Assembly: GCF_013122565.1 (NCBI RefSeq)
Contig: NZ_CP053258.1
Strand: one strand, 5' to 3'
Origin: Escherichia coli
GTDB taxonomy: Bacteria; Pseudomonadota; Gammaproteobacteria; Enterobacterales; Enterobacteriaceae
DNA length: 64,000 bases
Part shown: one piece after another, positions 598-672 of the stretch
Layout of the letters: each line of letters opens with the position of its first letter
Numbering within the stretch: position 1 is the first letter of the stretch
Notes under the pieces: model-generated
Told to the model about the DNA's origin: nothing
The model's input: only the letters and a program-made list of their open reading frames with translations
The model's database searches: none
Position numbers and translations under genes: made by a program

Positions 598-607
598 AAT
601 ATTAACC

Positions 608-630
608 ACTTTAGTTACAACATACTTATT
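608..630 (-). other. TerB replication terminator (Tus-binding Ter site)
   Basis: Plus strand ACTTTAGTTACAACATACTTATT is the reverse complement of AATAAGTATGTTGTAACTAAAGT (Ter consensus); lies between tus start and rstB stop. Confidence 0.85.
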
Positions 631-672
631 TTATAGCACAGTCGTGGTGACTTGACCATCGTGCGCGTAGTG

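Follow-up and report, generated by a model that had tools for sequence, protein, structure and literature searches.

A single copy of the replication-arrest site TerB occupies the short gap between tus and rstB in the window (the whole 64 kb stretch of DNA analyzed here), and the explanation that best accounts for our observations, which we consider very probable, is that this site would arrest forks by means of the Tus lock, would act as a back-up barrier behind TerC and would double as the operator of the tus gene. Sequence comparison confirms positions 608-630 on the minus strand as the chromosomal TerB of an E. coli strain, a member of a type II fork trap. In every respect in which a sequence can be examined (identity, core, G6, linkage to tus, polarity and the presence of a cognate Tus gene) the site agrees with TerB, and nothing in the evidence contradicts this identification.

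The TerB site, its polarity, the lock mechanism and its role as tus operator have all been described since about 1989-2006, and the site found here is thus an already known one. Recent surveys of Tus-Ter cover E. coli and the Enterobacterales, and the biology of the system gains nothing new from this example. Its value is mainly that of an annotation anchor: it assigns the window to the terminus region of E. coli and tells in which direction the window is replicated.

The TerB site and its neighbors

The features of the locus have the following coordinates.

1-597, minus strand: first 199 codons of tus, which continues past the start of the window; the C-terminal 110 residues of its product lie outside
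608-630, minus strand: TerB, a 23-bp Ter site; Ter position p is window coordinate 631-p
614-621, minus strand: Ter core GTTGTAAC, Ter positions 10-17, intact
625-625, minus strand: G·C(6) base pair of TerB; the sequence itself shows C on the plus strand
673-1974, minus strand: rstB, sensor kinase; 433-aa product with HAMP, HisKA and HATPase_c domains

The window was searched with the 23-mer AATAAGTATGTTGTAACTAAAGT, with up to three mismatches allowed, and the only match was at 608-630 on the minus strand, with no mismatch at all; the pattern GNRNGTTGTAACNA is likewise matched with 0 mismatches. The first-pass annotation had reported an exact 23-bp Ter consensus between tus and rstB, which it placed at 598-672. 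The exactness stands, since all 23 bases are those of K-12 TerB and MG1655 carries the same 23-mer at the corresponding place, but "consensus" is the wrong word for what is the exact TerB sequence. Similarly, 598-672 does contain the site, but these coordinates describe the entire 75-bp intergenic gap between the start codon of tus (597-595) and the stop codon of rstB (675-673); the site proper is 608-630. The native TerB oligonucleotide of the published work (PMC4499146) is identical to the window site and to some 20 nt on either side of it. TerB is intergenic and outside any open reading frame, with 10 nt between Ter position 23 (608) and the tus ATG (597), and the whole 75-bp gap is identical in K-12 and in 2,172 complete E. 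coli genomes.

The cognate Tus protein is encoded beside the site. The 199-residue product of 597..1 is matched by the Pfam family Ter (PF05472; E 1e-83) and by the Tus chains of the PDB entries 1ECR, 2EWJ, 2I05 and 2I06 (E 6e-129), and it shares 198 of its 199 residues with K-12 Tus, the sole difference being I23T. The names tus, rstB, rstA and ydgC come from the RefSeq annotation under matches of 99.8% identity in 5,414 genomes.

Another arrangement of this neighborhood is found in E. coli KTa005 (NZ_CP147084.1; locus about 2600-4930), in which the rstB side of TerB carries an ISEcp1 transposase gene and a gene for an MBL-fold hydrolase. No rstB is annotated there, and both TerB and tus are intact.

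Terminus location and direction of replication

The location of the window in the replication terminus region, which the first-pass annotation deduced from TerB, is supported by four independent lines: collinearity with K-12, a TerC site on the same strand, two matS sites and the map of the complete genome of strain VE-T9. The landmarks used are listed below.

33963-33975, no strand assigned: matS site GTGACGTTGTCAC, exact; MatP-binding marker of the Ter macrodomain
44319-44331, no strand assigned: matS site GTGACGTTGTCAC, exact; MatP-binding marker of the Ter macrodomain
55617-55639, minus strand: TerC ACATAGGATGTTGTAACTAATAT; 22 of 23 bases identical to K-12 TerC, the difference (T2C) lying outside the core
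4.531 Mb of VE-T9: oriC (mioC/mnmG)
2.166 Mb of VE-T9: TerB
2.222 Mb of VE-T9: TerC
2.242 Mb of VE-T9: dif

A BLAST comparison with 100 kb of K-12 revealed that the window is collinear with it from tus to lsrC at 98-99% identity, with three differences: the absence of the Qin prophage and two extra segments, 52405-52904 and 57492-59242. TerC, found by a Ter pattern search, has the same orientation as TerB, from which it is separated by 55,009 bp, and its T2C allele is also carried by VE-T9. Two exact sites for the matS motif GTGACRNYGTCAC are present in the window versus 0.01 expected by chance; the K-12 stretch has both of them, with identical sequence and the same mutual spacing. MatP is reported to bind matS almost exclusively in the Ter macrodomain, where 23 such sites are found about 35 kb apart (PMC6907758). 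The VE-T9 record begins at dnaA, and the window is collinear with its plus strand at 98.6-98.9% identity. On this 4.573 Mb chromosome oriC lies at 4.531 Mb and the Ter/dif segment at 2.166-2.242 Mb, so that this region and the origin face each other across the circle. A search for dif found no copy in the 64 kb window, even with 4 mismatches allowed, and in the two genomes compared dif is situated beyond the window end, past TerC by 18.4 kb (K-12) or 20.1 kb (VE-T9). The first-pass annotation made no mention of TerC, although it is present in the same window, and it also missed both the probable operator role of TerB for tus and its position as a second-line barrier behind TerC.

Several other features of the window were recorded in the course of these comparisons. 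The cryptic prophage Qin, which occupies about 20.4 kb between rspB and ydfJ in K-12, is missing at about 32008-32023, where the two flanking blocks of the K-12 alignment meet and overlap by 16 bp; ydfJ, truncated in K-12, appears to be intact in the window, as it is in VE-T9. The segment 57492-59242 (1.75 kb, absent from K-12) is located between tam and lsrG, at the place where VE-T9 has an element of the IS200/IS605 type with a TnpB/InsQ gene and a tnpA remnant. The other segment absent from K-12 (52405-52904, about 500 bp) is at the 5' end of dgcF, a gene annotated in K-12 as a pseudogene without its N-terminus and in VE-T9 as a full sensor-domain diguanylate cyclase. Between marR and marC, VE-T9 has genes for a RelE/ParE-type toxin and an HTH antitoxin (2211154-2211942); both the window (45307-45372) and K-12 are without this pair. 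Identity to K-12 is 99.8% over positions 1-3000 but 98.0-98.8% beyond about 10 kb.

The direction in which this region is replicated can be read from the composition of its strands. The GC skew of the plus strand is +0.023 overall and positive in six of the eight blocks of 8 kb, and 11 Chi sites are on the plus strand versus 6 on the minus. A strand that is both G-rich and favored by Chi should be the leading one, which would mean that forks normally run from 1 toward 64000. In VE-T9 a fork that leaves oriC by way of dnaA reaches tus first, and this corresponds to the plus direction of the window. The KOPS motif GGGNAGGG is present as a single copy (60815, plus strand), too few to speak to polarity. 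The GC skew, the Chi skew and the collinear genome thus all indicate that forks from the origin would run through the window in the direction from 1 to 64000.

Such forks would encounter position 23 of TerB (608) first, which is its permissive end. The published work defines the non-permissive end of a Ter site as that with A(4), A(5) and GC(6) and the permissive end as positions 19-23 (PMC4499146). The locking end of the window site, with Ter position 1 at 630 and G·C(6) at 625, faces TerC and dif. As judged from these features, TerB is in the standard arrangement, permissive to the fork from the origin and blocking to a fork that comes from the side of dif and TerC. The orientation relative to oriC, which had been left to be determined, is hence the expected one, with the permissive face toward the origin. 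This polarity rests on the skews and on collinear genomes of 98.6-98.9% identity because the strain's own oriC and dif are outside the window.

Two alternative readings of the site bear on its identity and on its setting, and we consider both to be improbable. One is that 608-630 is a chance match or pseudo-Ter that resembles a Ter site in its core only and is neither bound by Tus nor functional. Core matches are indeed cheap: the 8-mer GTTGTAAC has 3 copies in the window versus 1.9 expected and is by itself unremarkable, and the copy in ynfE, at 24938-24951, is just such a pseudo-site. Yet the window site matches TerB at all 23 bases, and not one of 100 dinucleotide-preserving shuffles contained a match to the 23-mer within 3 mismatches; its position beside tus is identical to that in K-12, and it has the G6 that the ynfE site, with A at position 6, does not. 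Mismatches in the core, named by the first-pass annotation as the observation that would overturn its claim, are nowhere to be seen at 614-621. The pseudo-Ter reading, with a probability that is close to nil, is already refuted by the complete match, the shuffles and the identity with K-12. The other alternative, only slightly less improbable, is that TerB and tus were translocated or inverted in this strain, with an abnormal terminus layout or reversed polarity as the result. There are precedents for this: in E. coli IAI39 TerB and tus are swapped with TerE, and there are Shigella strains with an inverted TerC and with dif between TerC and TerB (PMC8347550). Moreover, none of the complete E. 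coli genomes in RefSeq is identical to the window over the stretches searched, the best match being 99.8% over 1-3000 and 98.8% over 50000-64000. Against such a rearrangement, the full 64 kb is collinear with VE-T9 and, except for Qin and the two small insertions, with K-12; TerB and TerC share one strand, as they do in MG1655, with no dif between them at up to 4 mismatches; and the GC and Chi skews fit the standard polarity. An inversion with its breakpoints outside the window would make the skew of the plus strand negative, and the skew observed is positive.

The third core match, AGATGTTGTAACCA at 24938-24951 on the plus strand, is opposite in orientation to TerB and TerC and was rejected as a Ter site, since positions 6, 18 and 20 are A, C and T, respectively, its place is equivalent to ynfE and it belongs to a set of core matches at chance level. 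It is most likely a chance match within coding sequence.

The tus promoter and its nested Ter site

The sequence around TerB contains three elements that could direct the expression of tus.

653-658, minus strand: candidate -35 hexamer TGGTCA, 4 of 6 bases, 17 nt upstream of the -10
630-638, minus strand: TGcTATAAA, candidate extended -10 of the tus promoter, which ends on Ter position 1
606-610, minus strand: putative weak Shine-Dalgarno-like AGTGG, 8 nt before the ATG and overlapping TerB at its permissive end

Read along the minus strand, the order is thus the rstB stop codon (675-673), the -35-like hexamer (658-653), the extended -10 (638-630), TerB (630-608), AGTGG (610-606) and the ATG (597). 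In an alignment of the window, K-12 and five other E. coli strains (n=7), all seven sequences agree in the -10 element TGcTATAAA, in Ter positions 8-23 and in the spacer before the ATG; in the candidate -35, GGTCA is invariant in all seven and the first T is present in six. A sigma-70 consensus promoter scan of 400-1000 called no site, and it missed the candidate tus promoter because the tool requires a T at position 6 of the -10 and the hexamer here ends in A. Given that result, the tus hexamers are our reading of the sequence, for which the support is their conservation. In KTa005 the sequence is shared only as far as the candidate tus -35, some 24 bp upstream of TerB.

Between rstB and tus there is no sign of an rstB terminator or of a structured leader, as far as such elements can be predicted. 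A terminator scan of 400-1000 found only one terminator-like hairpin, inside rstB; the RNA fold of 590-700 on the minus strand was no better than that of shuffles (z = 0.38); and an Rfam search of the whole window found nothing at the tus-rstB locus. The sole Rfam match in the window at gathering score was the Hfq-binding sRNA STnc560, at 41352-41565 on the plus strand (282 bits). Transcription of rstB heads toward the non-permissive face of TerB, and that of tus would be head-on to the fork that normally replicates the gene. Mohanty et al., in 1996, are said to have described a polar block of RNA polymerase by Tus-Ter. If Tus-Ter does block the polymerase in this polar manner, TerB would bar rstB read-through arriving at its non-permissive face.

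TerB is not uniform within the species, which has at least two alleles of it. The second, ATTAAGGATGTTGTAACTAAAGT (beginning ATTAAGGATG), differs from the K-12 type (beginning AATAAGTATG) by A2T and T7G; the alleles were compared among EECO1006, ST540, O145 RM8988, STEC346 and VE-T9 (record position 2166367). When 5,426 complete genomes were searched for exact 41-mers, the K-12 type was present in 2,334 and the variant in 1,256, while neither query had a match in about 590. The existence of two alleles agrees with the listing of terB as a site that varies by 1-2 SNPs per 23 bp (PMC10331603).

To survey the conservation of the arrangement beyond E. coli, a single genome from each species was scanned for a Ter core with M-x-R-Y-D codons 5-25 nt downstream. 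Of the 54 loci obtained, 53 have a Tus orthologue (47-98% identity) as their downstream ORF; the remaining one, from a genome of the Pelagibacterales, is devoid of G6 and can be taken as a control for chance matches. The genera represented among the 53 include Escherichia, Citrobacter, Salmonella, Enterobacter, Cedecea, Erwinia, Pantoea, Mixta, Proteus and Yersinia. The spacing from Ter to the ATG is 6-22 nt, mostly 7-11 nt, and G6, A8 and T9 are invariant in all 53 tus-proximal sites though the pattern leaves them unconstrained. At 42 of the 53 loci an element of the form TGnTAnnnn ends within -3 to +2 of Ter position 1, versus 2.7% of random 17-mers from the same loci; these counts come from loci that are phylogenetically non-independent (many of them from Citrobacter) and that were selected by a pattern fixing Ter positions 10-20. 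The scan returned several Escherichia species and clades and no standard representative of E. coli or of Salmonella enterica subsp. enterica. The K-12 sequence itself fits the pattern, and a codon-3 variant such as ATGGCGTGT, which was seen in ST540, may be the cause if it is present in the representative genome. As judged by this distribution, the nested layout of promoter, Ter site and tus would clearly seem to be ancestral, a conclusion that Toft et al. (2021; PMC8707476) have already reached.

What the layout could mean for the regulation of tus follows from its geometry. The probable extended -10 abuts Ter position 1, which would place the start of transcription inside TerB, and Tus bound to the site would then be expected to repress its own transcription. 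This is compatible with the published autorepression of tus: passages in two papers, each citing Roecklein 1991, state that Tus autoregulates via TerB in the tus promoter (PMC8707476) and that TerB overlaps this promoter (PMC8347550). A further possibility, which we regard as a rather doubtful one, is that the nesting couples tus expression to replication. The passage of a fork from the permissive side, once per cycle, might strip Tus off TerB and so briefly derepress tus. If this were true, a pulse of Tus would coincide with the need to re-arm two sister copies of the terminus. This is a conjecture, parts of which have perhaps been proposed before.

Fork arrest at TerB and comparison with known systems

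The literature on the identical sequence supplies the binding of Tus, its lock mechanism, the arrest of forks at TerB and autorepression, and these are combined here with our own findings on the identity of the sequence, its position, its polarity relative to replication and the conserved nesting of Ter and tus. The Tus monomer, whose gene is immediately downstream, would bind TerB asymmetrically. The oriC fork of this replichore would hit Ter position 23 first, displace Tus and continue toward TerC and dif. A fork of the other replichore that had gone past dif and escaped TerC, 55 kb away, would move in the minus direction and meet the position-1 end of TerB first. Unwinding by DnaB should then release C(6), at 625, which would dock in the cytosine pocket of Tus to give a locked complex that arrests the fork. 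This scheme follows the published mechanism, in which Tus binds Ter asymmetrically and the helicase, by unwinding the non-permissive end, sets C(6) free to flip into the Tus pocket and so lock the complex (PMC4499146). TerB would thus be a second-line barrier behind TerC in a type II fork trap, directed against the fork of the other replichore. With TerB, TerC and two matS sites, the trap on this side of dif is intact in this strain, which lacks the Qin prophage.

How often this barrier is actually used may be questioned. It could be argued that TerB is kept mainly as the autoregulatory operator of tus, arrest at this place being rare or dispensable since it is TerC that does the blocking. The nesting of the Ter site between a -10-like element and the tus start codon at 53 loci, in many genera, is what such a view would predict, and an intact and correctly oriented TerC lies between TerB and dif. 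In vivo Tus occupancy is limited to TerA-E and TerG, and TerB is most likely used only when a fork gets past an unbound TerC (PMC8707476). Yet the roles of operator and of barrier are not exclusive. In a passage that summarizes 2D-gel work, the blocked-fork signal is described as highest at TerC and TerB (PMC10331603), and an ectopic, non-permissively oriented TerB was unobtainable and was concluded to be unviable (PMC8707476), which argues that TerB is a very strong barrier. Finally, the invariance of G6 in all 53 loci argues that not only binding but also arrest is under selection. An operator-only justification for TerB is hence, in our opinion, unlikely, though more credible than either of the readings weighed above. 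We prefer the combined interpretation of a Tus-locked barrier that backs up TerC and is at the same time the tus operator.

The closest known system is the K-12 TerB, at about 1.68 Mb and upstream of tus, which has the same 23-bp site in the same 75-bp intergenic region, the same neighbors (tus, rstB, rstA, ydgC, folM and onward) and the same orientation relative to TerC, to matS and to the direction of replication. The window differs from it by its identity of 98-99%, by Tus I23T and TerC T2C, and by a TerB-TerC distance of 55,009 bp versus 75,070 bp in K-12, which is the shorter because Qin is absent. The second E. coli allele (O157:H7, O145, STEC346, VE-T9) shares the locus, the core, G6 and the tus spacing but has T for A at Ter position 2 and G for T at position 7; the window is of the K-12 type. 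In other Enterobacterales the tus-proximal Ter (for example Ter1 of Edwardsiella tarda or Cedecea neteri) is also a few bases upstream of the tus ATG, reads in the same direction as tus and conserves G6 and positions 8-20. In the type I traps (Toft et al. 2021; PMC8707476) the tus-linked Ter is the innermost barrier, whereas in the window and in K-12 TerC is interposed between the tus-linked TerB and dif, and TerB is therefore second in line. TerC itself belongs to the same family of Tus-binding sites as TerB and shares its polarity and its replichore; unlike TerB, it has no linkage to tus and no operator role, and its flanks are different, with GGATG at positions 6-10 and AATAT at 19-23. It would be the first barrier for the very fork that TerB backs up.
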